DNA of 64,000 bases from Actinomycetota bacterium (GTDB taxonomy: Bacteria > Actinomycetota > UBA4738), in contig DAIUAM010000001.1 of assembly GCA_036847185.1 (NCBI GenBank), positions 68,989 to 132,988 on the forward strand, written 5' to 3'. A program made the translations under genes and the position numbers. The notes beneath the pieces are model-generated. The model was not told the origin of the DNA. It did not search any database and worked only from the letters and a program-made list of their open reading frames with translations. Positions 3,573-56,066 of the stretch are shown in pieces (position 1 is the first letter of the stretch; each line of letters opens with the position of its first letter).

Positions 3573-3588
3573 GACGACCGCGTCTCGG

Positions 3589-13054: not shown

Positions 13055-13122
13055 CCAGCGCAGCGACCGTCACCGCATAGGCCGCGATCACGTAGCCGAT
13101 GTTGTTCGGCGCAGCGCCGAGT

Positions 13123-13902
13123 TCAGCCACGCGCGGAAACCTCCTTCGGTGCGGGCGGGGTCGGCGGCGGCTCGACCGGGGCAGATCGCGGTTCGAGCCG
13201 CGGAGAGAGCGCCTCGCTGATCGCCCGATCCTCCAGGCGCCCGACCCGCAGGCGGAACGTCACCAGGTACGCGTACAGCAGAGTGAACGCCGCCACCCCG
13301 ACCAACAAGCCCGCGGCCATGCTTGCCGCCATGCGGGGCGCGACGTGCAGGAGGGCCGGGGCCTGGTGCTGCGACCGCCACCAGGTCACCGAGAGATGCA
13401 CGATCGGCACGTCGACGAAGGCCACGATCCCGATCGCCGCCGACCACCGGGCCCGCTTCGCCGGGCTGTCCGGGAGGCGGCGAACGGCCAGGTAGCCCAC
13501 GTAGATCAGGAACAGCACCGCCGTGGTGGTCAGGCGCGGGTCCCACGTCCACCAGATCCCCCATGTCGGCTTGGCCCAGATCGAACCGAGCACCAACGTC
13601 AACCCGATGAACAGCACCCCGACCTCGGCGGAGGCGGCCGCCAGCCGGTCCCACCTGATCCGCTTCGTCGCCAGGTAGGCCACGCTCGCCGCGAACACGA
13701 TGAAGAAGGAGAGATAGGCCAGCCAGGCCGAAGGAACGTGCACGTAGATGATGCGGAACACGTTGCCCTCGTCGGCGTCGGGAGGTGTGACCCACAGGCC
13801 CAGCACGGCCGTGGCGATCACGCCGGCCGCGGCGAGCAGGCCGAGCACCTTCTCGCCCCTCCGGGCGGTGAGCCTGCCCATCATCCGTTCGGCGGTGCTC
13901 AT
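13123..13902 (-). CDS. ccmC: Heme exporter protein CcmC
   Basis: Internal ATG at 13902 ([11 protein letters not shown]), six predicted TM helices, and the WGxxWxWD tryptophan-rich motif [12 protein letters not shown]. The upstream 95 codons of ORF 13123..14187 overlap ccmB and were rejected. Confidence 0.85.
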
Positions 13903-13912
13903 GGGACGTGCC

Positions 13913-14587
13913 TCAATCCTCCAGCAGGTAGGGATAGACCAGCGTACCGGCTGCCAGGAACACCAGGTCGAACGCCACCAGCAGTCCCAGCCACCCACCG
14001 GCCTGACCGCCTCGCCCCGTCGTCGCCAGGCTGGTGGCCTTGACTCCCGCCACCAGGACCGGCGTGGCCAGCGGCAGCACCAGGAGCGGGAAGATCGCCT
14101 CCCGAGCCCGCGGGGATTCGGCCAGGACGCCGAACAGCGACCCCACCGCGGCCAGCCCGACGGTCCCCAGCACGAACGCGCCGGCAAGCACGAAGGGCGC
14201 CCCCCCGAGCGACAGGTCGAACAGCCCCACGACCAGCGTGATCACCGCGACCTCCAGCGCCAGGAGCTGCGCGGCGACGGCCGCGGCCTTGCCCAGGAAC
14301 ACGGCGGCCTTGTCCATCGGCGCCAGCAACAACCCCTCCAGGGCTCCGTCCTCTCCTTCGGCCTCGTAGGCCCGGCGGAACGCCAGGACGGATGCGAAGA
14401 GCACCGCCAGCCACAGCAGGCCGGGCGCGGTTTCCTGGAGGAGCGTGCGTCCCGGGCCCAGAGACAGCCCGAACACGATTAGCAGGGTCCCCGCGAACGG
14501 CAGGATCGCGCTCAGCGCGTAACGTCCGCGAAGCTCGATCCGCAGGTCCTTGGCCGCCATGGCCACGCTCTGCCGAAGGAGGTTCAC
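13913..14587 (-). CDS. ccmB: Heme exporter protein CcmB (ABC permease)
   Basis: 224 aa polytopic membrane protein of CcmB family length and hydropathy. Its start overlaps the ccmA stop by 4 nt. Confidence 0.8.
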   Translation of the reverse strand: MNLLRQSVAMAAKDLRIELRGRYALSAILPFAGTLLIVFGLSLGPGRTLLQETAPGLLWLAVLFASVLAFRRAYEAEGEDGALEGLLLAPMDKAAVFLGKAAAVAAQLLALEVAVITLVVGLFDLSLGGAPFVLAGAFVLGTVGLAAVGSLFGVLAESPRAREAIFPLLVLPLATPVLVAGVKATSLATTGRGGQAGGWLGLLVAFDLVFLAAGTLVYPYLLED

Positions 14588-15291
14588 GAGGAAGCCGACC
14601 CTGCGGGGACCAGCCGTCCGCCGTCCATGAGCAGTGTCCTCCCGGCCATGTCTCCCCGGCCCGGGTCGTGCGTGGCCAGGATCACCGTTCGGCCTTCGGC
14701 TCCCGCATCCCGCACCGCGTCGTCCACGACCTCCTTGGCTTCTTCGTCCAGCCCCGCGTACGGCTCGTCAAGGAGCAGGAGCTCGGGACGGCGGAGCAGC
14801 GCCCGGGCGACGGCGACCCGCTGGCGCATCCCCTGCGAGTAGCCGGACACCCGGTCGTCGGCCGCGTCGGCCAGACCCGCCCGCTCCAGCGCCGGCCCGA
14901 CCCGCGATGGGTCGAGGCCGTACAGCGTGCACACGAACCGCAGGTTCTCCCGCGCCGTCAGGTCTTCGTACAACCGCGTGCGGTGCCCGAGCAGCTCGCA
15001 TCGCCGCCGGATCTCGTCGCGGTCGCGAAGGAGATCGAACCCGAGCACCGAGCCGCTCCCGTAGGTCGGCGAGAGGGCCGTGGCCACGATCCGGAGTAGC
15101 GTGCTCTTCCCGGCGCCGTTCGGCCCCCGCAGCAGCAGCGTCTCTCCCCGTTCGACCCGGAGGCCCACCCGGACCACAGCCGGGGCGACGCCGAACACGC
15201 GCGTCACGCCCGACAGCAGGACGGCCGGAGTGGCCGGGTCGGCCGCCGGGCTGCCATGGGTGCGCGGAGCGTCCACGGTGCGGGGAATCAC
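14584..15291 (-). CDS. ccmA: Cytochrome c biogenesis ABC transporter ATP-binding protein CcmA
   Basis: Walker A GPNGAGKST, ABC signature SGYSQGMRQRVAVARAL, Walker B LLLLDEP and H-loop ILATHD. GTG start at 15291 chosen (VIPRTVDAP...). The upstream 190 codons of ORF 14584..15861 are Arg/Ser/Cys-rich junk overlapping the next gene. Confidence 0.78.
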   Translation of the reverse strand: MIPRTVDAPRTHGSPAADPATPAVLLSGVTRVFGVAPAVVRVGLRVERGETLLLRGPNGAGKSTLLRIVATALSPTYGSGSVLGFDLLRDRDEIRRRCELLGHRTRLYEDLTARENLRFVCTLYGLDPSRVGPALERAGLADAADDRVSGYSQGMRQRVAVARALLRRPELLLLDEPYAGLDEEAKEVVDDAVRDAGAEGRTVILATHDPGRGDMAGRTLLMDGGRLVPAGSASS

Positions 15292-19596: not shown

Positions 19597-20457
19597 ATGT
19601 CCCCTCCGGCCTCCCCGTCGCCCGCTCCGCTCCGCCGCCCCACCGCGCCGGTCCGGGTCCTGGCGGTCCGGGACGGCCAGAGCTTCGAACGCCCCGATCG
19701 GCTGGCCGCCGAGGAGCCGATGGAGGTCCGGGTCGGCGGGCCGGGCCAGGAGCCCATGAGCGTGGCCGTCACCATGCGGACCCCCGGCCATGACTTCGAG
19801 CTGGCCGCGGGGTTCCTGTACACCGAAGGCCTGGTGCGGTCGCGCGATGAGATCGTCTCCGTGAACTACTGCGAGCTCCCCGCCGAAGAACAGCAGTACA
19901 ACGTGGTGACCGTTCGGCTGGCTCGGGCCTTCGACCTGGGCACCAACGCTCGGAACTTCTTCGCCAACTCGAGCTGCGGCATCTGCGGAAAGGCATCGTT
20001 GGACCACGTCCGGGTGAGCTGCCCATCGCTGCCGCCGGGACCGGTGGTGGCCGGATCGGTGATCGTCTCCCTCCCCGGCCGGCTCCGCGAGGCGCAGCGG
20101 ATCTTCGAGGAGACCGGCGGACTCCACGCCGGGGGGCTGTTCGAACCGGACGGGACGCCGGCCGCGGTGCGCGAGGACGTGGGACGGCACAACGCGCTGG
20201 ACAAGCTGGTGGGGTGGGCGCTGCTTGGGGACGGGCTGCCGTTGTCCGGCCGGATGCTCCTGGTGTCCGGACGGGTGAGCTTCGAGATCGTCCAGAAGGC
20301 GGCCGTTGCGAGGATCCCACTGATCTGCGCGGTCTCCGCGCCGTCGAGCCTCGCGGTAGCCGCGGCCGAGGAGCTCGGGGTAACCATGGCCGGTTTCGTC
20401 CGGGGCGGATCCTTCAACCTGTACAGCCATCCGGAGCGCGTCGACCTGGGAAGCTAG
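19597..20457 (+). CDS. fdhD: Formate dehydrogenase accessory sulfurtransferase FdhD
   Basis: 286 aa with the FdhD/NarQ signature SSCGICGKASLDHV and GRHNALDKLVGWALL. Confidence 0.9.
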   Translation: MSPPASPSPAPLRRPTAPVRVLAVRDGQSFERPDRLAAEEPMEVRVGGPGQEPMSVAVTMRTPGHDFELAAGFLYTEGLVRSRDEIVSVNYCELPAEEQQYNVVTVRLARAFDLGTNARNFFANSSCGICGKASLDHVRVSCPSLPPGPVVAGSVIVSLPGRLREAQRIFEETGGLHAGGLFEPDGTPAAVREDVGRHNALDKLVGWALLGDGLPLSGRMLLVSGRVSFEIVQKAAVARIPLICAVSAPSSLAVAAAEELGVTMAGFVRGGSFNLYSHPERVDLGS

Positions 20458-21677: not shown

Positions 21678-24600
21678 TTACCGCGCTCCCCTCTCGTTCG
21701 CCTCCCGCTTGCCGACGTGGGCCCGGCCTGCCGAGCAGAAGCTGAGGAAGTCGCACCACCGGCACTGGTCGCCGGGCGTCGGGTCGAAACTCCCCGCACC
21801 GATCCCTTCCAGTGCGGCCAGGACCCGCGCGCGCGTCTCGGAGGGGTCGCCGGCCCCCCGCGAGACCTCCTCGCCGTTCGCCAGGTAGAAGTAGGTGAGG
21901 CGGAGCTCTTCAGGCCGCTTGCCGAACACCTCGGTGCAGGCGAGAGCGTAGAGATCGAGCTGCAGCCCGGCCACCGGGTCATCCGATCCCGGTCGCTTCC
22001 CCGTCTTGTAGTCCACGACCTCCCACGGCCCGTCGGGCGTGCCGAAGATCGCGTCGATCCGCCCGTTCACGACGAACCCCCCCAGGAACAGGAGGAAGGG
22101 CCGTTCGGCGAACAGCGGCACCGCCGATCCGAACCGGCTCTCCAGGAAGGAACGCTGCAGCCGGTCAACCTTCCCCGGCTCTCCGGTCAGCTCCTCCGCG
22201 GTCAGGTCGGGCGACTCCTCGAGCTCCAGCAGTGACGCCTGCCCACTCCCCTGGCGTTCGATCCACGCGTGGACCTGCGTGCCGATGCGGGCGGCCGGCC
22301 CGCTGAACCGGGGGAGCGGTCGCACCGTGGTCCAGTAGAAGCGCTTCGGGCAGCCCGAATAGTCGATCAGCCCGCTGACCGAGACCGAGGAGGGAGCCGA
22401 AGGACGGACCGGCCCGGCGGCCTCCCGCTCCGCGAGGTGCAGGGCGAGCGTCCCGCGCTCCGCCGCGGCGGCTTGGTACCGCTCGACATCCTCGGGCGAC
22501 AGGGCCACCGCCCGGGCCGATGCTCGGATGCCTGCGGCGCCGGCCGTCGCGGCTTCGACCGCCGCCTCCCGCCAGCCCTCGGGGAACAGCTCATCGGCTT
22601 CGGCCCGGAGCGCCTGCCCCGGCCACGCCCGGACGAACCGTTCCCGATACTTCACCAGCGGGTTCTCCTCCGAGACGTCCGGCCCCCGGTCCACGGCCGC
22701 CGATCCGCTCTCCTCGCCCCACGCCGCGAGCTCCTCGAAGAACACACTGTCGTCCTTCGGCTTCCCGGTGTCGTCGCCGTACCAGTGGGCGCCGCTCACG
22801 AACAATCGCTTCCGGGCCCGGGTGAGGGCGACGTAGCAGGTCCGGCGCTCTTCGACCAGCGCCTGGTCCCGCAGGGCGTACCAGAACTCACGCAGGTTGC
22901 CCTGGAACGACGGCAGGATGTCCCGGTCCCCGCGAAGCTCGAAGTCGAGCGATCTCCCTTTCTCCGCGGGGTTCTGCTGGACGCGGAAGTCCGGCAGGAT
23001 GTCCTTGGCCATCCCCGGGACGAACACCGCGTCGAACTCCAGCCCCTTCACCTGGTGGATGGTCATGACCTTCACGGAGTCGTCCTCGCTCGGCTGGACC
23101 GGGGACCATTCGGGGCGGTCGGTCGCCTCCACGGCCTCGAGGTAGTCGAGGAACGCCCGGATGGTCAGCTCGCCCTCCAGCGGGGTGAACTCGTGGACCT
23201 CGTCGAGGAAGGCCGCGAGATTCCGCCGGGTGGCCAGCGCCTGCTGGGTGGCCAGGCTCGCGTCCAGTTCGGTCAAGAGCCCGATCCGGCGGATGATCTC
23301 GGCCAGGAACTCCCCCACCGGCCGACGCGCCTCGGCCCGGAGCCCGGCGAGCTCACGGCGGAACTCCTCCAGCCGAACCCGGCCCTCGTCGGAGAGGTAC
23401 GTGACGTCGTCGAGGTGTTCGAGCGCCTCCGCGAACAGGAAGGGAGGGGTCTCCTCTTCGTCCTCTCCGCGCAGGTCGCGGCCCCGGTCGCGGAGGTCGT
23501 AGTTCTTCTCTTTCGCCCAGGCAGCGACCCGTGCCAGGTCCTTGAATCCGACGCGATACCGGGGCCCCAACAGGATCCGGGCCAGCGACACCCCCGCGTA
23601 CGGATCGGCCACCGCCCGGACGTAGGCCAGCACCTCCACCACCTCGGGGAGCTTCAGCAGCCCGGCCAGACCGATGATCTCGACGGGGATGCCGCGTTCC
23701 GCGAACGCCCGCTGGATCGGGACGAACAGGCGGCTCTTCCGGCACAGCACAGCGGACTCCGACCACGGCCCGCCCTCTTCGTGCAGCCGGAGGATCCGGT
23801 CGGCGATGGCGTCGGCTTCGGCCTGCTCGTCGGCGAACCGCCGGACCTCGACCTCGCCGTCGCCGTTCGCCGGCCACGGGACCAGCCTCTTGTCCGGGTC
23901 GGGTCGCTGGCCGGGCGGGAGATCTCGCACGATCCGGTCGGCGGCAGCCAGGATATGCGCGCCCGAGCGGAAGTTCGTGTAGAGGGGCAGCTTGTCCGCT
24001 TCGGACCCATCCCGGCGGCGGAACTCTCCTCGGAACGCGATGAGGTTGAACAGGCTCGCCCCTCGCCACGCGTAGATGTTCTGGTCGGGGTCCCCGACGG
24101 CCGTGACCGGGAAGCCCTCGCCGAACACCAGCTGGATCAGTTGCGCCTGGGCCACGTTCGTGTCCTGGTACTCGTCCAGCACGACCGCCTCGTACCGCTG
24201 CCGGTATTCAGCCCCGACCTCCGGGAAGCGCTCGACGATCTGCAGAGCGAGCGTGATCTGGTCCCCGAAGTCGATCACCCCCAGCTCGCGCTTCAGCCGC
24301 TGGAAGCGTGCTGCGGCCCGGGCCAGCTCGATCCGCTGGAGGATGGCCTCGCGGACGCGGGGCTGCTGTTGATAGGTGCGGTTCTCGGGCGTCTCCACGT
24401 CGGCCAGGCGGGTCTCGTTGAACGCCACGATCTCCCCCGGGACGACGCGGTGGTTCGCGGCCTGGTCGGCGAGCGACAGGATGTTCTCGACCAGCGTCGG
24501 CTGCCACGTGGAGGTGACGTGGTCGAACGTCATCTCGTCCAGGACCCGGGCGCAAAGCTCCACCCGCTGGGCCGAGGTCAGCACGCGCTGGCCGGGCTCG

Positions 24601-25004
24601 ATCCCCACCCGCAGGCCGTGGCGGTCCAGGACCTGGGCAGCGAACCCATGGTAGTTCAGGATGGTTGGCTCCTCGCCCTCGGGAAGCTCCACGGCGGACA
24701 GCGCCCGCCGGATCCGGAGCTGGAGGTTCTCGGTGGCCTTGTTCGTGAAGGTCAGGCACAGCACGCTGCCGGGCAGCACGCCCTCGTGGGGGGCCTGGAG
24801 CCGGCCCAGCGCGACCAACGCGAGGTACACCACCCGGGCGGCGATGACCGACGTCTTCCCCGACCCCGCCCCGGCCACGATCACGTACGGTTCGAGCGGC
24901 ATCGAGATCGCCCTCCACTGGTCGGGCGTGGGTTGGAACCCACCGAGCGCTGCCCGGATCTCCGGCGGGGCCGCGGGGTCGCCGGTCTCGGCCGAACGGC
25001 TCAT
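21678..25004 (-). CDS. adnB: ATP-dependent helicase-nuclease subunit AdnB (UvrD-like SF1 helicase + C-terminal RecB-type nuclease with Fe-S Cys cluster)
   Basis: ATG 25004 (MSRSAETGDP) in an ATGA overlap with the adnA stop. Helicase motifs include Walker A AGAGSGKTSV, DEYQDTN and a QxxR region. The C-terminal PD-(D/E)XK domain ends with the Cys cluster GDQCRWCDFLSFC. ORF 21678..26531 (1617 aa) was split because its upstream part lies antisense to adnA. Confidence 0.85.
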   Translation of the reverse strand: MSRSAETGDPAAPPEIRAALGGFQPTPDQWRAISMPLEPYVIVAGAGSGKTSVIAARVVYLALVALGRLQAPHEGVLPGSVLCLTFTNKATENLQLRIRRALSAVELPEGEEPTILNYHGFAAQVLDRHGLRVGIEPGQRVLTSAQRVELCARVLDEMTFDHVTSTWQPTLVENILSLADQAANHRVVPGEIVAFNETRLADVETPENRTYQQQPRVREAILQRIELARAAARFQRLKRELGVIDFGDQITLALQIVERFPEVGAEYRQRYEAVVLDEYQDTNVAQAQLIQLVFGEGFPVTAVGDPDQNIYAWRGASLFNLIAFRGEFRRRDGSEADKLPLYTNFRSGAHILAAADRIVRDLPPGQRPDPDKRLVPWPANGDGEVEVRRFADEQAEADAIADRILRLHEEGGPWSESAVLCRKSRLFVPIQRAFAERGIPVEIIGLAGLLKLPEVVEVLAYVRAVADPYAGVSLARILLGPRYRVGFKDLARVAAWAKEKNYDLRDRGRDLRGEDEEETPPFLFAEALEHLDDVTYLSDEGRVRLEEFRRELAGLRAEARRPVGEFLAEIIRRIGLLTELDASLATQQALATRRNLAAFLDEVHEFTPLEGELTIRAFLDYLEAVEATDRPEWSPVQPSEDDSVKVMTIHQVKGLEFDAVFVPGMAKDILPDFRVQQNPAEKGRSLDFELRGDRDILPSFQGNLREFWYALRDQALVEERRTCYVALTRARKRLFVSGAHWYGDDTGKPKDDSVFFEELAAWGEESGSAAVDRGPDVSEENPLVKYRERFVRAWPGQALRAEADELFPEGWREAAVEAATAGAAGIRASARAVALSPEDVERYQAAAAERGTLALHLAEREAAGPVRPSAPSSVSVSGLIDYSGCPKRFYWTTVRPLPRFSGPAARIGTQVHAWIERQGSGQASLLELEESPDLTAEELTGEPGKVDRLQRSFLESRFGSAVPLFAERPFLLFLGGFVVNGRIDAIFGTPDGPWEVVDYKTGKRPGSDDPVAGLQLDLYALACTEVFGKRPEELRLTYFYLANGEEVSRGAGDPSETRARVLAALEGIGAGSFDPTPGDQCRWCDFLSFCSAGRAHVGKREANERGAR

Positions 25005-27925
25005 CTCGGGCCCTCCGCGATCGGGAACAGCTCGCCGCCTTCGGGGAACAGTGGACACAGCGTCTTGAAGCGGCAGAACCAGCAGTTCGCCGCGGGGCTC
25101 GGCCGGTAGCTCTCGCTCTCCAGCAGCTCGCCGAGACGCCCGATCAGTCCGCCGAGACGCTCGGTCATCAGCTGCTCGTACTCCCCCCGGACCCTGTCCG
25201 TGATCGGGAGCTGGGCGACGGCGAACGGCGCGGCAGCGGCCTGGTTCCGCTTCGGCGGATCCCGGAGGTACGCGAGCTCGACCGCCTTCACCGGGCGAAA
25301 GGCGGCGAGCTCTTCGGCCCGGTTCACCGCCAGGTAGTACATGCCGAGCTGGAGGTTCTCCTCGGGCTTCAGGACGTCCGCTGCCCGCCCGGTCTTGTAG
25401 TCGGTGATCAGCGTGCCGCCCCCGGCCCGGCCGATCCGGTCGATGTAGCCCGTCACCGTCGCGCCGTCGGATTCGAATTGGAACCGGACCTCGACGGCGA
25501 GGGCCTCCGCGGAGCCGTAGTGCCGGAACCAGTCCGGGAGCATCTTGCCGACCACCAGGCGGCGGAACGCGTCGGAAACCGCGTGAGAGGGGAACTCCTG
25601 CTCCCGCCACCGGTGCTCGGCCGCGGCGACCAGGGCCTCCGTGGTGCGTTCGACCAGCCCGTTCTCGCAGTCCTCGATGATGCGGTGCACGAGGTGGCCG
25701 ACCCACGCGTGGTAGCCGGCCCGGTCCTCCAATCCCAACTCCTCCCCGAGCACGTATTGCAGCTCGCAGTTCTCGAGCGTGCTGAGCTTCGAATACGAGG
25801 TTCGGACCTGTTCGTGGAGCGGCCGGTCCGACGCCGTCCAGTCGCGCTGGAACCACCACCCGCGGGGATCGATGGGGAGGCTCACCAGACCCGTGAGCGC
25901 GGCCAGGCGGTCCCAGGCGGGCGCTCCCGCGTCGGCCAGCCTCCGCCGCCAGGCGGCCGCGGCCTCGGCCACCGACAGGGGGTCCGGGAACGGGCCGGCC
26001 GGAGCGGTACGCCAGTGTATGCCGAGCTCGGCAACGAACCTCGATCGCGCGGCGAGCCCCGCATCCTCGCCGTGCGGATCGCTGGCCATGAGCAGGACCC
26101 GCCGGCGGGCCCGCCCGAGCACCACGTCGAACAACCGGCGTTCGTCCTTCAGCCGCAGCCGGTTGCGTTCGGACTGGCTGGTCCGTCCCTGCAGCATGGC
26201 CAGGTCGAACAGCGGCTCGGGGCGGGACAGGCTGGGGAAGTTCCCCTCCATCGCTCCGGCTACGATCACCGTGTCGAACTCGAGCCCGGCGGTGGCGTGG
26301 GCGGTGAGGACTCGTACCGCGTCGGCCTCGCTCGCACCCTCGCCGGCGAGGCCCGGCCCCTCTTCTCCCGCTTCGAGCAGGTCGAGGAACGAACCCACCG
26401 ACCGGTCCGAGCCCTCGTCGGCGCGCGAGACGGAGTCCGCGAACGTGAGGACCGCCGCCAGCGACCGGCGGGCCTCCTGGGAGACATCCGCGGCCTGGAC
26501 CAGACGCCGGGAGTAGGGAAGCTCGCGCCACAGCGTCGCGAACGCGTCGAGGGCCGAACGGCCGGCGACGGCCTCCGACGCGGCGAGGACCTCCCGCAGC
26601 GAGGCGAGACCGGCCGCCTCACCGGCGTCGAGCCCCTCATCCTGGAACACCGCGCGCCACGGAGGGTCGCCGGCCGCCCTCGCCGCCCGGACCAGCCCAC
26701 GAGCCGCGGCTGGCGAGAGGCGAGCCAGTTCCGACGTCAGGACCGATTCGACCAGTCCGTCTCGTTCGGCCGGCCGGGCCAGCCACCGAAGGGCCAGGAG
26801 ATACGGGAACGTGGCCGGCTCACCCAGGAGCGACAGGCCACCCTCTGGGGTGACCCGGGGAACACCGGCGTCGTCGAGCGCCCGCACGAGGCCACCGAGG
26901 TGCGAACCCTGCCGGCGGACCACCACCGCCATGTTCCTCCACGCGACCCCGTCCTCGATGTGGACCCGACGCAGTTCCCGGGCGATGGCGGCGTGCTCCT
27001 CGGACGTGTGCGCCGTGGACCATGCCTCGACCGTCGCCCCCTGAGGGCTCCGGTGCCGGGTCCGGAGCTCGACGTGGCCCGCATTGGGCAGGTGCTCGAC
27101 GAACGCCCGCAACGGCTCGTCGGTGGTGCCCTGGAACGAGTAGACGTGGGAACCGAGGTCGCCGGCGACCACCAGCGTCTCCCCCATTGAGTGCACGATC
27201 AGCGACTCCTCGGAGAACGTGGCCTCCTGGTAGTCGTCGACCAGCAGGTGGTCGAACAGCGGCTCAGCACGCCCGGCCGCCGCGGCCGCCTGTACGACGA
27301 GTCCGGCGAAGTCGACCGCACCGAGCTCGCCGAGCACGTCCAGGTACCGCCGGTAGAACTCGGCCAGCTCCAGCCATCCCGAGGTGCCGCTCCGGCCGGC
27401 ACGCGACGCGAGCTGCGCTGGATCCACCAGCGACTCCTGGGCGCGGAGCACGAACTGGCGGACCCCGTCGGCGAACCCACGAAGCCGGAGCATCCCGGCG
27501 AACGCCGGCCATTCGACCGGATCCTCTCCCTGCAGGAGCTCCCGGACCCGGGCGAACTGGTCGAAGGCGGTCAGGACCTCGGGCGGGCGCTCGTATCCCA
27601 GGGCGTCGAACCGCAGGGAGAGCGTGTGGTAGGCCAGCGCATGGACCGTCATCACCCGCACGTCGGGGAGCGCACGGCGAAGCCGGTCCAGGATGGCCGC
27701 CCGGGACATCCGCCGGGCGGACTTCGTTCGGACCACCAAGCCGACCCGCTCGGGGTCCGCGCCCCCCTCGACAAGCCGGGCGAAGCGCTCCCTGAGCACG
27801 ACAGTCTTGCCGGTGCCGGCTGCCCCGCTGACCAGCAGCGGACCTCGTTCGTGCTCGAGCACCAGGCGCTGACCTTCGTCGGGCACGAAGGCGGGGACGG
27901 TGTCGAGCTCCTCGATGGTGGTCAC
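25001..27925 (-). CDS. adnA: ATP-dependent helicase-nuclease subunit AdnA
   Basis: 974 aa with a GTG start (VTTIEELD). Walker A VSGAAGTGKT is present. The C-terminal nuclease domain has the Cys motif CWFCRFKTLCP. It sits in head-to-tail tandem with adnB, as in mycobacterial adnAB. Confidence 0.85.
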   Translation of the reverse strand: MTTIEELDTVPAFVPDEGQRLVLEHERGPLLVSGAAGTGKTVVLRERFARLVEGGADPERVGLVVRTKSARRMSRAAILDRLRRALPDVRVMTVHALAYHTLSLRFDALGYERPPEVLTAFDQFARVRELLQGEDPVEWPAFAGMLRLRGFADGVRQFVLRAQESLVDPAQLASRAGRSGTSGWLELAEFYRRYLDVLGELGAVDFAGLVVQAAAAAGRAEPLFDHLLVDDYQEATFSEESLIVHSMGETLVVAGDLGSHVYSFQGTTDEPLRAFVEHLPNAGHVELRTRHRSPQGATVEAWSTAHTSEEHAAIARELRRVHIEDGVAWRNMAVVVRRQGSHLGGLVRALDDAGVPRVTPEGGLSLLGEPATFPYLLALRWLARPAERDGLVESVLTSELARLSPAAARGLVRAARAAGDPPWRAVFQDEGLDAGEAAGLASLREVLAASEAVAGRSALDAFATLWRELPYSRRLVQAADVSQEARRSLAAVLTFADSVSRADEGSDRSVGSFLDLLEAGEEGPGLAGEGASEADAVRVLTAHATAGLEFDTVIVAGAMEGNFPSLSRPEPLFDLAMLQGRTSQSERNRLRLKDERRLFDVVLGRARRRVLLMASDPHGEDAGLAARSRFVAELGIHWRTAPAGPFPDPLSVAEAAAAWRRRLADAGAPAWDRLAALTGLVSLPIDPRGWWFQRDWTASDRPLHEQVRTSYSKLSTLENCELQYVLGEELGLEDRAGYHAWVGHLVHRIIEDCENGLVERTTEALVAAAEHRWREQEFPSHAVSDAFRRLVVGKMLPDWFRHYGSAEALAVEVRFQFESDGATVTGYIDRIGRAGGGTLITDYKTGRAADVLKPEENLQLGMYYLAVNRAEELAAFRPVKAVELAYLRDPPKRNQAAAAPFAVAQLPITDRVRGEYEQLMTERLGGLIGRLGELLESESYRPSPAANCWFCRFKTLCPLFPEGGELFPIAEGPR

Positions 27926-30414: not shown

Positions 30415-31079
30415 AGCTCTTTCGGGTAGTCGCCGTAGATCGCGGGAACCAGCTCGGCCGGCGTGCGGGGGCCGTTGCCCAGACCCTCCAGCACCTGTCG
30501 TTCGCGCAGCTCGCGGTGGTCGAGGTACTCCTCGAGCTTGGCCGTTCCCTCCCAAACGGCCGGCCCGTGTCCGGGAAGCAGGACGCGGGGTCGGAGCTCC
30601 CGCATGGCTCGAAGGGAGCGGAGGTAGTCGGCCAGGCGGCCCTCCGGAGGATCGATCACGCTCGTTCCCCGCCCCAGCACGGCGTCTCCTGTGAACAGCA
30701 GACCGAGCTCGGGCTGGTGGAAGACCGTGTGGTCGGCCGTGTGTCCCGGGGTGTGGACGGCGTGGAGCCGCGCCTCGCCCGCTCCGAACACCTGGCCGTC
30801 GGTAAGTGGCCGTTCGTCACCTCGCGGAGCGAAGGCGAAGATGGGCGCCCCGCTGGCGGCGGCGAGGGCGCCGGCCGCGGGGGCGTGGTCCGGATGATGG
30901 TGTGTGAGGAGGATGAGGAGCGCCTCGCCCGCTTCCCGCAGGACCTCGCGGACGTGCCCTTCGTCGGGCGGCCCCGGATCGATCACGATGGAGGGGGCAT
31001 CGCCGACGATCCAGGTGTTCGTCCCCTGGAGCGTGTACGGTCCGGCGTTGGGGGCCAGCACGCGACGGATCCTGGGCAT
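30189..31079 (-). CDS. MBL-fold metallo-hydrolase (hydroxyacylglutathione hydrolase-like)
   Basis: THHHPDHAPAAGAL is the HxHxDH motif, and HTPGHTADHTVF and LLPGHGP are also present. The conserved domain ends near 30340. A ~50-codon Ala/Ser/Arg-rich tail runs to the stop at 30189. Confidence 0.8.
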   Translation of the reverse strand: MPRIRRVLAPNAGPYTLQGTNTWIVGDAPSIVIDPGPPDEGHVREVLREAGEALLILLTHHHPDHAPAAGALAAASGAPIFAFAPRGDERPLTDGQVFGAGEARLHAVHTPGHTADHTVFHQPELGLLFTGDAVLGRGTSVIDPPEGRLADYLRSLRAMRELRPRVLLPGHGPAVWEGTAKLEEYLDHRELRERQVLEGLGNGPRTPAELVPAIYGDYPKELHPIAARSVLAHLVKLEEEGRVLPEGDPSEGRFALASASKRARSRRPKAGGAAASTPSPRREADTSGRVTPSATE

Positions 31080-31201
31080 CGGTCAGCCCTCGGCGACCCG
31101 CGGTGGCGAAGGTACGGCCTCCGGCGGCCTGGGGGGATCCGTGGAGAAACTCGGTGATAGCGGCCAGCTGTGCATCCGGGAATGATGGCAGAGTAGGCTG
31201 G

Positions 31202-32296
31202 ATGGACGGCGACGGGGTCTCGCTCGCCGAACGGCTGCGTTCGACCATCGCTTCGGGCGGACCGATCCCTTTCGCCCGGTTCATGGAGGCGGCGCTCTAC
31301 GATCCCGACGAGGGCTTCTACGAGCAGCGCCGGATCGGTGAACGGGCCGACTTCGTGACGAGCCCGCACGTTTCGCCGGCTTTCGGCGAACTCCTCGCGC
31401 GGCAGATCGAGGAGTACCGCGAGCTCCTCGGCGATCCGGCGTCCTTCACCGTGGTCGAAGCCGGTGCCGGCGACGGGACGCTCGCCCGGCAGCTCATGGA
31501 GCGCCTCCCTGAACGAGCCGGACGGCGCGTCAGGTACATCGCGATCGAACGAAGCTCCCACTACCGGGAGCAGCTGCGAGCGATCCCCGGCCTCGAGGTG
31601 GCCGGTTCGCTCCGGTCGTTCGGCAGGATCGAGAGCGGCTGCCTGATCGCCAACGAGGTCCTGGACAACCTCCCCTTCGCCCGGCTGCGCCACGTCGCCA
31701 GGGGATGGGCGGAGCTCTTCGTCGGGATGGACGGCGCCGGGCGGTTCGTACTGGTCGAAGGATCACCGTCGTCCCCTTCGCTGCTGGCCCACCTGCGGCA
31801 CGCCCCGCCTGGGACGGAGGTTGCCGTGTCGCTCGCTGCGTTCGACTTCCTCGACGCACTGGCCTCCCTGTTCAGGCGCGGCTACGCGCTCCTGATCGAC
31901 TATGGCTACCGGGGGGCGAGCGAGCGGGCCACACCCGTCCACGGGTATCGCACCCACACCATCGACCTCGAGGTGCTGGACGCGCCGGGCGCCAGGGACA
32001 TCACCGCGGGGATCGACGTCGATGCCCTCGCCGCGCACGCCCGGGCAAGGGGCCTGGCCGTGTTCGGCCCGGTCACCCAGCGAGACGGCCTCCTGGCCCT
32101 CGGATTCGCCGAGCTCGACGAAGCCGGGCGCCGTCGGCAGGTCGAAGCGATCGACGCCCGGCGCGGTATCGAGAGCGTCCGGATCTTCTCGAACCGGAAC
32201 CGGGCGCGGCAGCTGATCGCGAACGAAGGGCTTGGCGGGTTCTGGTTCCTGGGCCTGGGGATCGGGACCGACGCTCGCCCCCGAGCGTTTCGCTAG
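31202..32296 (+). CDS. SAM-dependent methyltransferase, MidA/NDUFAF7 family (DUF185)
   Basis: ATG 31202 (MDGDGVSLAERL). The protein has FMEAALYDPDEGFY, FVTSPHVSPAFGELLA and the SAM-binding VVEAGAGDGTLA. This matches the MidA family architecture. The upstream 33 codons were rejected. Confidence 0.8.
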   Translation: MDGDGVSLAERLRSTIASGGPIPFARFMEAALYDPDEGFYEQRRIGERADFVTSPHVSPAFGELLARQIEEYRELLGDPASFTVVEAGAGDGTLARQLMERLPERAGRRVRYIAIERSSHYREQLRAIPGLEVAGSLRSFGRIESGCLIANEVLDNLPFARLRHVARGWAELFVGMDGAGRFVLVEGSPSSPSLLAHLRHAPPGTEVAVSLAAFDFLDALASLFRRGYALLIDYGYRGASERATPVHGYRTHTIDLEVLDAPGARDITAGIDVDALAAHARARGLAVFGPVTQRDGLLALGFAELDEAGRRRQVEAIDARRGIESVRIFSNRNRARQLIANEGLGGFWFLGLGIGTDARPRAFR

Positions 32297-32327
32297 CACC
32301 CGCCGGACCGGGGCTGCCGCTCGATCC

Positions 32328-33530
32328 CTACCGGTCGACGTCCCCCACGACGAAGAACACGCTCCCCAGCACGGCGATGAGGTCCGGCACCAGCGCGCCA
32401 GGCAGCAGCGCCGGGATCATCGACACGTTCGAGAACGAAGCGGTTCGCATCTTCATCCGGTAGGGGAACTCCCCGCCGTCACCCACCAGGTAGTACCCCA
32501 TGAGCCCCAGCGGGTTCTCGGTCCGCACGTAGATCTCGCCCTCCGAGGGCTTGATCTTCTTGGGGAGCTTCGGGTTGATGTACTGGCCGGGGGGGAGCTT
32601 GTCCAGGCACTGTTCGATGATCTTGCAGGACTCCCACATCCGCCGGACCAGCACCCACAGCCGGTCGTAGCAGTCGCCGTTCTGGCCGACGGGGACGTCG
32701 AACTCGACCTCGCCGTATTTCTCGTACGGCGCGTCCTTCCGGGCGTCCATCGCCACGCCACTCGCCTGCAGGACCGGACCGGAACACCCGTAGGAGGTGG
32801 CCACCTCGGGCGCCAGCACGCCGATCCCCTTCGTCCGGGCGGCGATGATCTCGTTGCCCATCACCAGGTTGTCGAAGTCGACCAGCTTCTTGCGGACCCA
32901 CGTCAACGTCTCGCCGGCCCGCTTCAGGAACCCCCGGGGAAGATCGTCCTTCAGCCCGCCGACCCGCGCGTACGAGTGGTGCATGCGGGCGCCGGTCGCG
33001 GTCTCCATGAGGTCCTGGATCATCTCCCGCTCGCGGAACGCGTAGAACACCGGCGTCATCGCACCCAGCTCGAGCGGATAGGAGCCGCAGAACATCAGAT
33101 GGTTCAGCAGGCGGTTCCATTCGGCCATCATCGTGCGGATCCACTGGGCCCGCTCCGGGACCTCCACGCCGATCAGGCGCTCGCAGGCGATGACCCACCC
33201 CAGCTCGTTGTTGAAGGCCGAAAGCCAATCGTGCCGGTTCATCAGCACCAGGACCTGGCGGGTGTCCCGGTACTCGACGAGCTTCTCGGCCGCCCGGTGC
33301 ATGTAGCCGATGACCGGTTCTGCCCGGATGATCTTCTCTCCGTCCAGCTCCAGGACCACCCGGAGCACCCCGTGCGTCGATGGGTGCTGCGGCCCGATAT
33401 TGAGGATCATCTCCTCGGCGTGGAGCGGACCTTCAGTGATGATGTCGATGCCGCCACCGCGGAGCATCCATGCGTCGCTGGCGGCCGTGAACGCGGCCTG
33501 CTGGCGAACCAGGTCCTCCCGGGTGTCCAT
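32328..33530 (-). CDS. nuoD: NADH-quinone oxidoreductase subunit D homologue (49-kDa/Nqo4-type), orphan copy
   Basis: The protein reads MILNIGPQHPSTHGVLRVVLELDGEKIIRAEPVIGYMHRAAEKL ... RVGGLKDDLP ... C-terminal. It is full-length NuoD-like. ATG 33530 chosen, with 33605 as an alternative. No other nuo genes flank it. Confidence 0.85.
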   Translation of the reverse strand: MDTREDLVRQQAAFTAASDAWMLRGGGIDIITEGPLHAEEMILNIGPQHPSTHGVLRVVLELDGEKIIRAEPVIGYMHRAAEKLVEYRDTRQVLVLMNRHDWLSAFNNELGWVIACERLIGVEVPERAQWIRTMMAEWNRLLNHLMFCGSYPLELGAMTPVFYAFREREMIQDLMETATGARMHHSYARVGGLKDDLPRGFLKRAGETLTWVRKKLVDFDNLVMGNEIIAARTKGIGVLAPEVATSYGCSGPVLQASGVAMDARKDAPYEKYGEVEFDVPVGQNGDCYDRLWVLVRRMWESCKIIEQCLDKLPPGQYINPKLPKKIKPSEGEIYVRTENPLGLMGYYLVGDGGEFPYRMKMRTASFSNVSMIPALLPGALVPDLIAVLGSVFFVVGDVDR

Positions 33531-33794
33531 CGAAGCCGAAGCGTACCAGAGCACCGCTGTCCGGCTCGTCGCCCGCGAGCGGGACGCGCTACCGTCACCC
33601 GCCATGGACTTCTCGATCCCCCCCGGAGGATCAGGAACTCGTGACCGGCCTCCGCTCGTTCATCGATCGCCAGGTCCGTCCGGTCGAAGATTCCAGCCCG
33701 AGATCCAGCGGCTCGTCATCGCCCGCTCGCTCGGCCTGTAGCCCGGTCGGGTGACCGGTCGGGCCGCTCCGACCGGCTGCTACATTCGCAGCCG

Positions 33795-34100
33795 ATGAGC
33801 ATCCTCTCGTACCTCAAGTTCGACATGACGGAGGACTTCGACCGCGAACGGTTCGAACGGGACCTCCACGACATGTTTGAGCTGGCGCAGCACCAACCGG
33901 GTTTCCAGTGGGCCGAGATGGGTCCGTCGATGACCACGCCGAACGTCTACCTCATCGTGTCGGAGTGGGACGAGGTCGATCAGGTCCGGGCCTGGGAGCA
34001 CGTCGAGGAGCACGAAGGGATCGCCCACGTGTGGGAGCCGCGGTACCGGGAGCCGCTGCTGCATCGCCGGTTCGTCCCCTGGGTGCGACCGCAGCCATGA
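33795..34100 (+). CDS. Antibiotic-biosynthesis-monooxygenase (ABM/Dabb) domain protein
   Basis: 101 aa. YLIVSEWDEVDQVRAWEHVEEH is typical of ABM ferredoxin-like fold proteins. The stop overlaps the selA ATG (ATGA). Confidence 0.6.
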   Translation: MSILSYLKFDMTEDFDRERFERDLHDMFELAQHQPGFQWAEMGPSMTTPNVYLIVSEWDEVDQVRAWEHVEEHEGIAHVWEPRYREPLLHRRFVPWVRPQP

Positions 34101-35470
34101 GCGCGCGCCCGAAGCCCGGGTCGGAGGACCGGCGTCGGGAGCTTCCGTCCGTCGACGCGCTGCTCCGCTCCGGACCCGGACGCAGGGGCCAGCTGAAGTT
34201 CGGCCGGCCGCTCCTCAAGGACGCCCTCAGCCTGACGCTGAAGGAGATCCGCGGCGACGCGACCAACGGTCGGGCGGTCCCCGACACCGAGATCATCCTG
34301 GCCCGGGCCCTCGGGTCCGCGTCGCGCACCTCCTACGGCGTGAGCGCTGTGATCAACGCCACGGGTGTCCTCCTGCACACGGGTCTCGGCCGGGCCCCGC
34401 TCCCCATCCGCGCCGCCGAAGCCGCCGCCCGCGCCGCCGTCGGCTATTCGGACCTGGAGGTGGACCGGGAGACCGGGGAGCGAGGGCGCCGAACCTCTCG
34501 AGCGGAGACCATGGTCCGGGCTCTGACCGGGGCAGAGGACGCGCTGGTGGTGAACAACAACGCCGCCGCGCTCCTGCTCGCCCTGGCCGCACTGGCGACG
34601 AAGAAGGACGTCCTGGTCTCCCGCGGCGAGCTGATCGAGATCGGCGGCGAGTTCCGCCTCCCCGACATCATGGCCGCCTCGGGCGCGCGCCTGGTGGAGG
34701 TCGGCACGACGAACCGGACCCGGGCCGGCGACTACCGCAAGGCGCTCGGCCCGAAGACCGGCTTGATCCTCAAGGTCCATCCCAGCAACTACCGGGTGGT
34801 GGGCTTCACGAACGTCGTCCCCGTGGCAGAGCTGGCCGCGCTGGCCCAGCAGTCGAAGGTACCGCTGCTGTTCGACGTCGGCAGCGGGCTCCTCGACCGC
34901 TACCCGGGGATCCCGAAGGAGGAACCGGCCGTCCGCGAAGCGCTGGACCAAGGCGCCGACCTGGTCTCGTTCTCCGGCGACAAGCTCCTCGGTGGCCCAC
35001 AGGCAGGGATCGTCGCCGGGCGGTCCGGCCTGATCGAACGCCTCCGCCGCCATCCCATGGCACGGGCGGTCCGCGTGGACAAGATGCAGGTCGCCGCGCT
35101 GGAATCGGTGCTCCGTCTGTACGCTACCGGACGTCGCGAGGAGATCCCGCTCTGGCAGTTCCTGGCGAGCCCGCAGGGTCACCTGTTCGAACGAGCCCGG
35201 GCACTGGCGTCCTGCTTCAAGGGGGCGAAGGCGCGTAAAGGCGGGTCGGTCGTCGGCGGCGGCACGTTGCCGGGCTACGTGGTGCCCTCGGCCGAGGTTG
35301 CCATCCCCGTCGCCGATCCGGCGGCCACCGCGGCCCGGCTGCGGAACGGCCGGCCGCCGGTCTTCTGTCGCGCGGACGACGGCCTGCTCGTGTTCGACCT
35401 TCGAACCGTGCCGCCGGAGAGCGACGACCGCCTGGTGCGTGCGGTCCGGTACGCCCTGGGCCAGGCCTGA
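34097..35470 (+). CDS. selA: L-seryl-tRNA(Sec) selenium transferase
   Basis: ATG 34097 (MSARPKPGSEDRRRELPSVDALL). The PLP-dependent SelA core includes VINATGVLLHTGLGRAPL, LVSRGELIEIGGEFRLPDIM and the KVHPSNYRVVGF Lys region. The upstream 63 codons of ORF 33908..35470 were rejected. Confidence 0.9.
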   Translation: MSARPKPGSEDRRRELPSVDALLRSGPGRRGQLKFGRPLLKDALSLTLKEIRGDATNGRAVPDTEIILARALGSASRTSYGVSAVINATGVLLHTGLGRAPLPIRAAEAAARAAVGYSDLEVDRETGERGRRTSRAETMVRALTGAEDALVVNNNAAALLLALAALATKKDVLVSRGELIEIGGEFRLPDIMAASGARLVEVGTTNRTRAGDYRKALGPKTGLILKVHPSNYRVVGFTNVVPVAELAALAQQSKVPLLFDVGSGLLDRYPGIPKEEPAVREALDQGADLVSFSGDKLLGGPQAGIVAGRSGLIERLRRHPMARAVRVDKMQVAALESVLRLYATGRREEIPLWQFLASPQGHLFERARALASCFKGAKARKGGSVVGGGTLPGYVVPSAEVAIPVADPAATAARLRNGRPPVFCRADDGLLVFDLRTVPPESDDRLVRAVRYALGQA

Positions 35471-35481
35471 CCCGCCCGGAG

Positions 35482-37338
35482 ATGGAGCCGGGCGACGCCG
35501 ACCGGACCCTTCGGGTCGTCGCCACGGCCGGGCACGTCGACCACGGCAAGTCGGCCCTGATCCTGAAGCTGACCGGCATCGATCCGGACCGTCTGGCGGA
35601 GGAGAAGCGGCGCGGGCTGACCATCGACCTGGGGTTCGCCTGGGCCACGCTGCCCTCGGGCCAGGAGGTCGGCTTCGTCGACGTCCCCGGCCACGAGCGT
35701 TTCGTCCGGAACATGCTGGCCGGCGTCGGACCCGTCCGGCTGGTGCTGTTCGTCGTGGCCGCCGACGAGGGGTGGAAGCCGCAGTCCGAGGAGCACCTCG
35801 AGATCGTGGACCTGCTGGGCGTGGAAGGCGCCGTCATCGCACTGACCAAGACGGACCTGGTCGACGACGAAACGCTCGCCGCGCGGATCGACCACGTACG
35901 CGGGCGGCTCGCCCATACCGCGCTGGCCGGCGCGCCGATCGTGCCGTGTTCGGCCTTCTCCGGCCAGGGGGTCGACGCGCTCCGCGAAGCCCTCGAAGCG
36001 ATGATCGCCCGCGCACCCGTGCCGGCGAGCGATGGGCGACCGCGCCAGTTCGTGGACCGCGTGTTCACCATCAAGGGCGCGGGTACGGTGGTGACCGGGA
36101 CGCTGACCGGCGGGCCCCTGGCGGTGGGCATGGAGGCCGAAGTCCTCCCGTCCGGGCACCGAGCGCGGATCCGCGGCCTGCAGACCCACAAGCGCTCCCT
36201 GCAGGAAGCGCGGCCGGTGTCGCGTCTGGCCGTCAACCTGGCCGGCACGACGAAGGCCGATCTGGTTCGCGGCGACGCGCTGGTGCTGCCCGGCGACTGG
36301 CGGCCATCCACGACCATCGAGGTGCTGCTGCGTCCGGTTCGAACCCTCGACCATCCGCTCACCTCACGGGGCGCGTTCAAGTTCTACGCTGGCTCGGCCG
36401 AGCGCGACGCGAGGCTTCGGTTCGTGGGAGCCTCCGAGCTGCTCCCCGAGCGGCAGGCGTTCGCCAGGATCCGGCTCTCGTCCTCGGTCGTCCTGGACTT
36501 CAAGGACGCATTCGTCCTTCGCGAGGCCGGACGCCAGCAGACGGTGGCGGGCGGGCTCGTCCTGGACACGGACCCGCCCCTGCGACCGGGAACCAACGCC
36601 ATGGCCCGACTGGAGGCTCGTCTGTCCACGGGGCGCGAGGACCTTCCTGCGCTGCTCGTGGAGGAGCGCGGCCGGCTGCGCACCGCCGACGTCCACGCCC
36701 TCACCGGCTCGACCGCGGGTGCGCGCCCGGCACGCGCACACCAGCTGGGATCCTGGCTGGTCGCCGGCTGGTTCCTCGAATCGGTCACGGTCAGAGTGGT
36801 CGAAGCGCTCCGCGCCCATCATGTGGCGCACCCGCTCAGCCCCGGGGCGGAGGTCTCCGATGTGGTTCGAACCCTTCGCGGCCTGGTCGAGCAGGACCTG
36901 TTCGAAGCGATCCTCGGCCACCTGTCGGCTTCGGGGCTGATCGTTCGCGACCATACGGTCGTCCGCCTCAGCTCGCACCAGCCGTCCACCGCCGGCCGTG
37001 ACGACGCCGGACGGCTGGTGGAAGCGGTCCGCAGCGCCGAGCCCAGCCCGCCCACCGTGAAGGAGCTCGTCGCCGCCGGGTTCGGCCCCGAGCTGATCCG
37101 AGCTGCGTGCGCGGACGGACGCCTGGTCCGGGTCTCACCCGACATCGTGATCTCGCCCGAGCTCATGGCGCGAGCCGAGCGCATCGTCCGAGACCTCGCC
37201 CACCCGCCGGGGATCACGGTGAGCGCGTTCCGCGAAGCGCTGGGCACCAGCCGGAAGTACGCCCTGCCGATCCTCGAGCACTTCGACGCGGGCGGCCTGA
37301 CCCGCCGGCAGGGCGACCTTCGGGTGATGCGGGGCTGA
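35482..37338 (+). CDS. selB: Selenocysteine-specific translation elongation factor
   Basis: The GTPase domain has AGHVDHGKS (G1), DVPGHERF (G3) and LTKTDL (G4). C-terminal winged-helix domains follow. 618 aa. Confidence 0.9.
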   Translation: MEPGDADRTLRVVATAGHVDHGKSALILKLTGIDPDRLAEEKRRGLTIDLGFAWATLPSGQEVGFVDVPGHERFVRNMLAGVGPVRLVLFVVAADEGWKPQSEEHLEIVDLLGVEGAVIALTKTDLVDDETLAARIDHVRGRLAHTALAGAPIVPCSAFSGQGVDALREALEAMIARAPVPASDGRPRQFVDRVFTIKGAGTVVTGTLTGGPLAVGMEAEVLPSGHRARIRGLQTHKRSLQEARPVSRLAVNLAGTTKADLVRGDALVLPGDWRPSTTIEVLLRPVRTLDHPLTSRGAFKFYAGSAERDARLRFVGASELLPERQAFARIRLSSSVVLDFKDAFVLREAGRQQTVAGGLVLDTDPPLRPGTNAMARLEARLSTGREDLPALLVEERGRLRTADVHALTGSTAGARPARAHQLGSWLVAGWFLESVTVRVVEALRAHHVAHPLSPGAEVSDVVRTLRGLVEQDLFEAILGHLSASGLIVRDHTVVRLSSHQPSTAGRDDAGRLVEAVRSAEPSPPTVKELVAAGFGPELIRAACADGRLVRVSPDIVISPELMARAERIVRDLAHPPGITVSAFREALGTSRKYALPILEHFDAGGLTRRQGDLRVMRG

Positions 37339-55977: not shown

Positions 55978-56051
55978 CGGGACGTAGCGCAGTTTGGTAG
56001 CGCGCAGCGTTCGGGACGCTGAGGTCGCGGGTTCAAATCCCGCCGTCCCGA
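55978..56051 (+). tRNA. tRNA-Pro (anticodon CGG)
   Basis: Manual fold. The acceptor cgggacg pairs with cgtcccg. The D-arm is gcgc/agtttggta/gcgc. The anticodon stem is cagcg/cgctg with loop ttCGGga (G37). The variable loop is aggtc. The T-arm is gcggg/ttcaaat/cccgc. The discriminator is A. CCA is not encoded. Length 74 nt. Confidence 0.85.
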
Positions 56052-56066
56052 CTCGGAGGACATTCC

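Follow-up and report, generated by a model that had tools for sequence, protein, structure and literature searches.

A MidA/NDUFAF7-family methyltransferase gene beside a solitary nuoD2-type gene in Actinomycetota: a candidate enzyme-substrate pair for a complex I-like enzyme

The window analysed here, a stretch of 64 kb from a member of the Actinomycetota with a G+C content of about 70%, carries a gene for a MidA/NDUFAF7-family methyltransferase and, next to it, a solitary gene for a homologue of NuoD, the 49-kDa subunit of complex I. The two genes are convergent and lie tail to tail. The stop codon of the methyltransferase gene is a TAG at 32294-32296 and that of nuoD is a TAG, read as the reverse complement, at 32328-32330; read from the sequence, 31 nucleotides (nt) separate the two. 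An earlier note on this DNA had described the pair and had suggested that the bacterial enzyme acts on the NuoD-type protein. The genes and their spacer are as follows.

31202-32296, plus strand: gene for a MidA/NDUFAF7-family (PF02636, COG1565) S-adenosylmethionine (SAM)-dependent methyltransferase of 364 amino acids (aa), identified by Pfam, PDB matches and AlphaFold fold
32297-32327: spacer of 31 nt between the convergent stop codons, read from the sequence
32328-33530, minus strand: solitary NuoD2-type gene (49-kDa subunit/NDUFS2 homologue) of 400 aa, identified by PF00346, NF004739 and its place in the NuoD2 clade

The longest open reading frame (ORF) of nuoD reaches 33605; translation probably begins at the ATG at 33530, as relatives share an N-terminus of the form MDxxER. 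The same 364-aa MidA gene has been called on six public contigs, and identical genes are present on soil and permafrost metagenome contigs and in the metagenome-assembled genomes (MAGs) GCA_002405235.1, GCA_002413305.1 and GCA_036783625.1. When the NuoC, H, I, J, K, L, M and N proteins of an annotated operon were compared with the window by tblastn, the sole match was NuoD itself. Similarly, a Pfam search of the ORFs called in the window, and in about 7 kb upstream and 10 kb downstream of it on matching contigs, revealed no other complex I family. The window gene is, therefore, not placed between nuoC and nuoE or nuoH, as in a nuo operon. A promoter and terminator scan of 30900-34000 gave nothing informative. 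No terminator-like site lies within the 31-nt spacer, and the four that were found in the scanned region are all inside the NuoD coding region, the nearest being at 32358-32373 on the minus strand.

The two proteins

The methyltransferase matches PF02636 (Methyltransf_28) with 131.3 bits against a gathering cut-off of 23.3, and the match covers profile positions 1-249 of 249. Its sequence matches in the PDB are 4f3n, 1zkd and the MidA of Dictyostelium, 5ztz. The AlphaFold model has a predicted local distance difference test score (pLDDT) of 90.9, and a Foldseek search with this model gave template modelling (TM) scores of 0.82 to 5ZTZ, 0.81 to 4G67 and 0.77 to 1ZKD. The strong matches, which span 0.77-0.83, are MidA/COG1565 structures only, and the next methyltransferase folds follow at about 0.3-0.4. 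The motifs located in the gene are listed below.

31451-31486, plus strand: SAM-binding motif I, VVEAGAGDGTLA, MidA residues 84-95; (E/D)xG(A/P)GxG, kept in all actinobacterial MidA groups, 4f3n and 1zkd
31649-31675, plus strand: MidA motif ANEVLDNLP, residues 150-158; (nearly) invariant in the MidA alignment, with (A/G)NExxDxxP in every group and in the PDB homologues
31985-32020, plus strand: MidA motif PGARDITAGIDV, residues 262-273; GxxD(I/L/V)TxxV in all groups and in the PDB homologues

The window protein has GxGxG, (A/G)NExxDxxP, DY(G/A) and GxxD(I/L)TxxV, and so do all four actinobacterial groups as well as 4f3n and 1zkd. As judged from its domain, its motifs and its predicted fold, the assignment of the enzyme to the MidA family is solid.

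The window NuoD matches PF00346 with an E value of 2e-87 and the NCBIfam NuoD model NF004739 with 431.8 bits against a cut-off of 360, while with the NuoD model TIGR01962 it scores 436.8, just under the cut-off of 459.35. Hydrogenase large-subunit models gave about 20-24 bits against cut-offs of 600-1100. The Cys motifs that bind Ni-Fe are absent, the protein having GPQHPSTHG, a terminal VVGDVDR and no CxxC pairs. The identity of a hydrogenase large subunit is thus rejected, and the 'hydrogenase-like module' that the earlier note had kept as an option finds no support. What that note had said of the locus itself stands. The stop codons confirm the 31 nt between the two 3' ends, tblastn and Pfam agree that no other nuo gene lies on either side (64-kb window and flanks of about 7-10 kb), and the profile scores given above uphold both a NuoD homologue and a MidA-family methyltransferase gene.

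The residues of NuoD that matter for the argument are encoded at the following positions.

33372-33374, minus strand: His53 codon in GPQHPSTHG, equivalent to T. thermophilus His38, the second quinone ligand; kept (alignments)
33294-33296, minus strand: Arg79 codon in GYMH-R-AAEK, the predicted methylation site, equivalent to Paracoccus Arg65, Yarrowia R121 and bovine R85 (ungapped alignment)
33225-33227, minus strand: Trp102 codon in NRHDW, at the position of the quinone-ligating Tyr (T. thermophilus Tyr87, Yarrowia Y144) (alignments)
33069-33071, minus strand: Glu154 codon in YPLELG, at the position of T. thermophilus Asp139, the partner of His38 (alignments)

The position of Arg79 follows from ungapped alignment, with an offset of +42 to the Yarrowia numbering and with chain residue 58+7 = 65 in Paracoccus 8qby_D. 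It has been reported that the methylated bovine Arg-85 is 'followed by a glycine' (PMC3750175), that Yarrowia R121 sits in an HRGXE motif (PMC8042128) and that the dimethylated arginine of Paracoccus is NDUFS2-Arg65 (PMC11522691). The methylated Arg had previously been placed in the stretch HGVLRVV. This stretch is present, and its arginine is Arg57; as a methylation site, however, it is ruled out, since both the papers and the alignment offsets point to the HRGxE motif. The claim that the methylated Arg is retained holds through Arg79, in a motif other than the one that had been named.

The canonical actinobacterial NuoD proteins that were checked, those of M. smegmatis (8e9g_D) and Corynebacterium, carry Thr in place of the target Arg and Tyr at the quinone position, as in Thermus. 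Because Thr replaces Arg, these canonical proteins could not be a MidA substrate, and in such organisms only a protein of the NuoD2 type could be one. Streptomyces NuoD1 is presumably of the same Thr/Tyr type.

The set of residues around the quinone head group, His38/Tyr87/Asp139, is found only in part in the window NuoD, which has His53, Trp102 and Glu154. Tyr87, the equivalent of Yarrowia Y144, is a quinone ligand and proton donor and is described as 'conserved and functionally critical'. The same replacements were observed in all the MidA-linked NuoDs, namely those of the window clade, a second soil clade, Streptomyces and the operons of Acidimicrobiia: Trp at the Tyr87 position and Glu or Gln at the Asp139 position, with His38 kept. 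No description of Trp at the Tyr87 position of NuoD in actinobacteria was found in the searchable literature. A Trp at this position was also seen in P0277, a 500-aa protein from a Candidatus Methanofastidiosia archaeon that is named NuoC and resembles a NuoC-D fusion, as well as in three other representatives outside the actinobacterial clade. These alignments suggest that the Tyr87-to-Trp substitution arose independently more than once.

Gene neighbourhoods across Actinomycetota

Streptomycetes are known to possess a full nuoA-N operon along with a second set of genes, nuoA2, B2, D2 and H2-N2, which form a contiguous nuo2 operon except for nuoD2, which lies apart from it (PMC8388888, PMC3765725). 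A query modelled on S. coelicolor NuoD2 was 95% identical to Streptomyces proteins. P0420, of the Streptomyces NuoD2 type, is 56% identical to the window NuoD, and both carry the signature GYMHR..NRHDW..SYPLELG. In a neighbour-joining tree, which is rough and has no support values, the window NuoD, Streptomyces NuoD2, the NuoDs of both soil clades and the NuoD of the Acidimicrobiia operons form one clade of 27 leaves, all of the Arg/Trp type. By signature and tree, the window NuoD is classed as NuoD2-type and falls in the same clade as Streptomyces NuoD2. It is, thus, the relative of a known solitary second copy, which favours the suggestion in the earlier note that it is a complex I paralogue.

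In cultured Streptomycetaceae, a PF02636 gene lies near this solitary gene. On the S. canus chromosome, the two genes converge, with an overlap of 36 nt. A two-component system and two bPH_2 genes separate nuoD2 of S. subrutilus from its PF02636 gene, which lies 4 kb upstream, and in Actinacidiphila alni the PF02636 gene is 1.1 kb upstream and on the same strand. Identity between the window MidA and the MidA-like protein of Streptomyces is 31% (E 5e-19). No paper that links nuoD2 with a methyltransferase was found in the searchable literature.

A scan of the genome collection with the MidA alignment yielded 80 species-level loci. Of the 48 loci most similar to that of the window, 43 have NuoD downstream of MidA and convergent with it. 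Identity to the window proteins is 71-87% for NuoD and 39-54% for MidA. NuoD is the most conserved gene of the block, and this fits a subunit of a large complex. The entire block hyp134-(DehI)-Crp-MBL-MidA-NuoD-SelA-SelB-YjgF-WhiB is syntenic across the window clade. The adjacency in this clade therefore represents one ancestral arrangement and not 43 observations, and the 43 loci were accordingly dropped as independent support. The NuoD match of two long-read MAGs is spread across several reading frames (L013, 11281-12458; L028, 12984-14160), which indicates frameshifts, either from assembly errors or from pseudogenes.

None of the 120 best NuoD matches falls below 82% identity to the window NuoD; the clade is, therefore, a very abundant one in soil. 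The closest full-length outgroup of the window NuoD in an exhaustive search of representatives is P0241, at 56% identity, and a metagenome scan with P0241 gave 80 loci, which make up the second soil clade. Here, too, NuoD is solitary amid unrelated genes. Of the 19 loci whose upstream sequence extends to 4 kb or more, 15 have a divergent PF02636 gene, detected with 54-77 bits at relaxed thresholds, upstream of NuoD on the same strand. Among the 23 loci carrying this gene, it is within about 150 nt of NuoD in eight. MidA and NuoD are the only genes that the neighbourhood of the window has in common with those of Streptomyces or the second clade.

A different layout is seen in the more distant loci, which are mostly from Acidimicrobiia. 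There the genes run nuoC-D-H-I-J-K-L-M-N, an operon of the 11-subunit type, and then MidA, all on the same strand, and Pfam finds no nuoE, F or G between D and H (L071). Of the 19 Acidimicrobiia loci with 8 kb or more of upstream sequence, 12 have nuo genes in the 10 kb before MidA. In ten of them MidA comes straight after nuoN, and in the other two it lies about 2.8 kb (L072) and about 7.2 kb (L076) downstream. An Acidimicrobiia-type nuoCDHIJKLMN-MidA locus also turned up on a contig titled uncultured Burkholderiales (L059). Its NuoD is 74% identical to that of an Ilumatobacteraceae MAG, and the contig is probably mis-binned or mislabelled.

Several other features were noted around these genes. 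In both Streptomyces species, one or two bPH_2 genes lie immediately upstream of nuoD2 and divergent from it (L171-L175). A histidine kinase/response regulator pair stands between MidA and the far-side neighbours in S. canus, and between MidA and nuoD2 in S. subrutilus. One locus of the second soil clade, L100, has a single bPH_2 gene upstream, separated from nuoD by a short SRPBCC gene. In the window, nadC-nadA-nadB occupies 1745-5052, about 27 kb from nuoD, and S. canus has panC-nadB-nadC (L173, 19021-21158) about 7-10 kb from nuoD2. These nad genes may be the remnant of an old shared chromosomal region.

Within the window, selA and selB (34097-37338) lie directly beside nuoD and are kept across the clade, and fdhD (19597-20457) is 12 kb away. 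No tRNA-Sec is present in the window, whose only tRNA is a tRNA-Pro (55978-56052), and a catalytic gene for formate dehydrogenase is likewise absent. At about 9800-14600, a cytochrome c maturation cluster of system I (CcmH, the thioredoxin-like CcmG, CcmF, CcmE, a CcmC-like protein and CcmB) indicates that the organism makes c-type cytochromes. Further, two large adjacent genes for UvrD-helicase/PD-(D/E)XK nucleases, similar to AdnA/AdnB, are present at 21678-27925. Such a pair is kept upstream of the block in many members of the clade and is inverted in some.

Interpretation and its alternatives

We consider that the locus encodes a MidA/NDUFAF7-type methyltransferase together with its NuoD2 substrate, and that both would serve a complex I-like enzyme of the nuo2 type that lacks NuoEFG and is encoded elsewhere in the genome. 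From the sequences and their neighbourhoods, we give this a probability of roughly 60%. According to the proposed mechanism, MidA would bind newly made NuoD2 and methylate Arg79 in GYMH-R-AAEK, the homologue of the arginine that is symmetrically dimethylated in NDUFS2 and in Paracoccus Nqo4. The methylated NuoD2 would then join NuoB and the membrane subunits of the enzyme. Because midA and nuoD2 stay close across Actinomycetota, the mitochondrial step of methylating NDUFS2 in order to build complex I probably exists in this phylum as well. The earlier note had rested its enzyme-substrate suggestion on adjacency at this locus and had called for a wider survey of the two genes. The suggestion gains from the recurrent proximity of the genes in four layouts across Actinomycetota, cultured Streptomyces included, while the adjacency within the window's own clade amounts to one event. 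Related genomes do share the adjacency, as the convergent pair of the window clade makes clear, even if that pair is to be counted once.

A number of observations weigh against this interpretation. The window genes are convergent, so they cannot be co-transcribed, and inserts of 1-7.5 kb part MidA from NuoD in 18 of the 43 window-clade loci. The MidA linkage is missing in four of the 19 second-clade loci, and nuo linkage is missing in seven of the 19 Acidimicrobiia loci. Within each clade, the proximity follows general synteny, so the number of independent linkage events is small, about two to four. The target Arg is kept in 39 of 40 clade members. As Arg is the majority state at this position, being present in about 125 of the 150 closest NuoD cluster representatives, its retention is weak evidence and was dropped as a specific signal. 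Arg79 is followed by Ala, and not by Gly as at the bovine site. One locus with an adjacent MidA has His at the predicted site (GYMHHGPEK; L052, 1934-3109), which is either a sequencing error or a natural exception. In E. coli, the equivalent Arg is present and unmethylated (PMC3750175). Moreover, for the actinobacterial proteins we infer the methylation of Arg79, its site and its role in assembly from sequence comparison, and the nuo2 partner genes are assumed to lie elsewhere in this genome.

The proximity could also be inherited synteny without function, the MidA-family enzyme methylating some other protein or a nucleic acid. Several of the points above suit this explanation, since the whole block from hyp134 to WhiB is conserved in the window clade, insertions often part the two genes, and the window pair is convergent. 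Besides, fol and bPH_2 genes are likewise retained close by in Streptomycetaceae and the second clade, and a Wolbachia MidA expressed in E. coli was reported to methylate DNA, at A and C, an observation that also weighs against NuoD2 as the substrate. Yet shared ancestry does not easily explain why MidA and NuoD are the sole neighbours common to the window clade and Streptomyces or the second clade. Nor does it explain why, with orientation and intervening genes varying, the two genes remain no more than about 5 kb apart at identities of 56% for NuoD and about 30% for MidA. A separate layout in Acidimicrobiia, with MidA right after nuoN, and the fact that the eukaryotic member of the family has exactly the 49-kDa subunit as its substrate make synteny alone improbable. 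Somewhat less improbable, though still unlikely, is that the window gene is the organism's only nuoD, displaced from a clustered or scattered nuo set, with MidA serving the sole complex I. This possibility is compatible with the MidA link and does not exclude it. The protein passes the NF004739 equivalog model, it is very strongly conserved, and the same type of NuoD is found inside a nuoCDHIJKLMN operon in Acidimicrobiia. However, its closest characterised relatives are the NuoD2 proteins of Streptomyces, found alongside a full nuoA-N operon, and several members of the clade are titled class Actinomycetes, whereas the canonical NuoDs of M. smegmatis and Corynebacterium are of the Thr/Tyr type. 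The TIGR01962 score of 436.8 remains under the cut-off of 459.35, and the quinone-ligating Tyr is replaced.

This last replacement lends itself to another explanation, in which NuoD2 works outside a quinone-reducing complex I-like enzyme, in some other assembly or in a non-catalytic or regulatory capacity, and MidA modifies it for that role. The functionally critical proton donor Tyr87 is Trp and Asp139 is Glu, some members of the clade have further degenerate quinone-loop sequences (P0273, P0343), and the gene is solitary in three lineages. Against this stand the Trp-type NuoD between nuoC and nuoH in the Acidimicrobiia operons, the intact His38 and GPQHPSTHG loop and the very high conservation of NuoD. 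The Streptomyces nuo2 operon, in addition, is short of only D among the Q-module and membrane genes. We regard such a role as highly improbable.

Returning to MidA and NuoD2 as enzyme and substrate, a wider reading may be put forward tentatively, as one that is possible rather than probable. MidA methylation near cluster N2 would be an ancient bacterial trait and not proteobacterial in origin. In Actinomycetota, it would be dedicated to the Arg/Trp NuoD2 lineage, which would form a complex I-like enzyme devoid of the NADH module and with altered quinone chemistry, as Trp cannot donate the proton of Tyr87. Once nuoD2 had moved away from the nuo2 operon, midA would have stayed with it as a unit, since NuoD2 would have to receive its methyl groups before it could be assembled.

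In Nqo4 of Paracoccus denitrificans, the equivalent Arg was shown in 2013 to be symmetrically dimethylated (PMC3750175), and the modification was seen again by cryo-electron microscopy in 2024 (PMC11522691). According to the latter structure paper, the modification is unreported for any other bacterium (PMC11522691). A 2018 paper that combined MidA crystal structures with bioinformatics is cited as having argued for a conserved function of MidA in the assembly of complex I, from bacteria through to humans, and for a proteobacterial origin of arginine methylation. In view of the Paracoccus modification and of this proposal, the statement that bacterial MidA has no assigned substrate is outdated at the level of hypothesis. 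No direct trial of a bacterial MidA on NuoD was found in the literature examined. Thus, the action of MidA on the 49-kDa subunit and the solitary nuoD2 of Streptomyces are already known. As per the accessible literature, the conserved MidA-nuoD2 pairing across Actinomycetota and its association with the Trp-type NuoD lineage are new.

Dimethylation of the N2-proximal Arg has been documented so far in eukaryotes and in one bacterium, Paracoccus, and the role of bacterial MidA homologues has been deduced from structures and bioinformatics. If the proposal is true, the Arg modification would not be confined to the proteobacterial and mitochondrial line. The presence of the pairing in genetically tractable Streptomyces offers a direct and cheap test. 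It would also provide the first functional handle on the enigmatic nuo2 system of actinomycetes, whose D subunit has Trp at the place of a catalytic Tyr.

Comparison with known systems

The best-known counterpart of the window pair is NDUFAF7/MidA acting on NDUFS2 in the mitochondria of humans, Dictyostelium and zebrafish. The enzymes share the PF02636 family and the MidA fold (TM 0.82 to 5ZTZ), and in both cases the partner is the homologous 49-kDa subunit with the target Arg near cluster N2. The identity between the window MidA and Dictyostelium MidA is about 20% in the structural alignment. Unlike the mitochondrial pair, the pairing in the window is deduced from gene proximity, and it belongs to an actinobacterium and not to a mitochondrion or an alpha-proteobacterium. 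Its partner is a NuoD2 paralogue with Trp for the quinone-ligating Tyr and with Ala, not Gly, after the Arg. Among bacteria, Arg65 of Paracoccus Nqo4 aligns with the window Arg79, and the modification thus exists outside eukaryotes; Nqo4, however, is a canonical NuoD of the Arg/Tyr type, whereas the window protein is of the Arg/Trp type.

Streptomyces nuoD2 is the nearest relative on the NuoD side. It resembles the window gene in its 56% identity, in the shared signature and clade, in being solitary and in having a MidA-family neighbour, which is convergent in S. canus. The flanks differ, with fol, bPH_2 and a two-component system in Streptomyces and MBL, selA and selB in the window, and the MidA proteins are only 31% identical. 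Of the two, Streptomyces alone has a documented coexistence of nuoD2 with nuoA-N and nuo2 operons. On the MidA side, the closest solved sequences are the COG1565/DUF185 proteins of Burkholderia (4F3N/4G67) and Rhodopseudomonas (1ZKD), with E values of 2.5e-27 and 3.2e-26 and TM scores of 0.77-0.81. They carry the same motifs as the window MidA, but they are proteobacterial, and their PDB titles come without an experimentally assigned substrate. The best PDB sequence match of the window NuoD is T. thermophilus Nqo4 (343 bits), which is alike in the His38 loop and the overall domain. In contrast, both T. thermophilus and M. smegmatis NuoD have Thr at the position of the window Arg79 and Tyr at that of Trp102.

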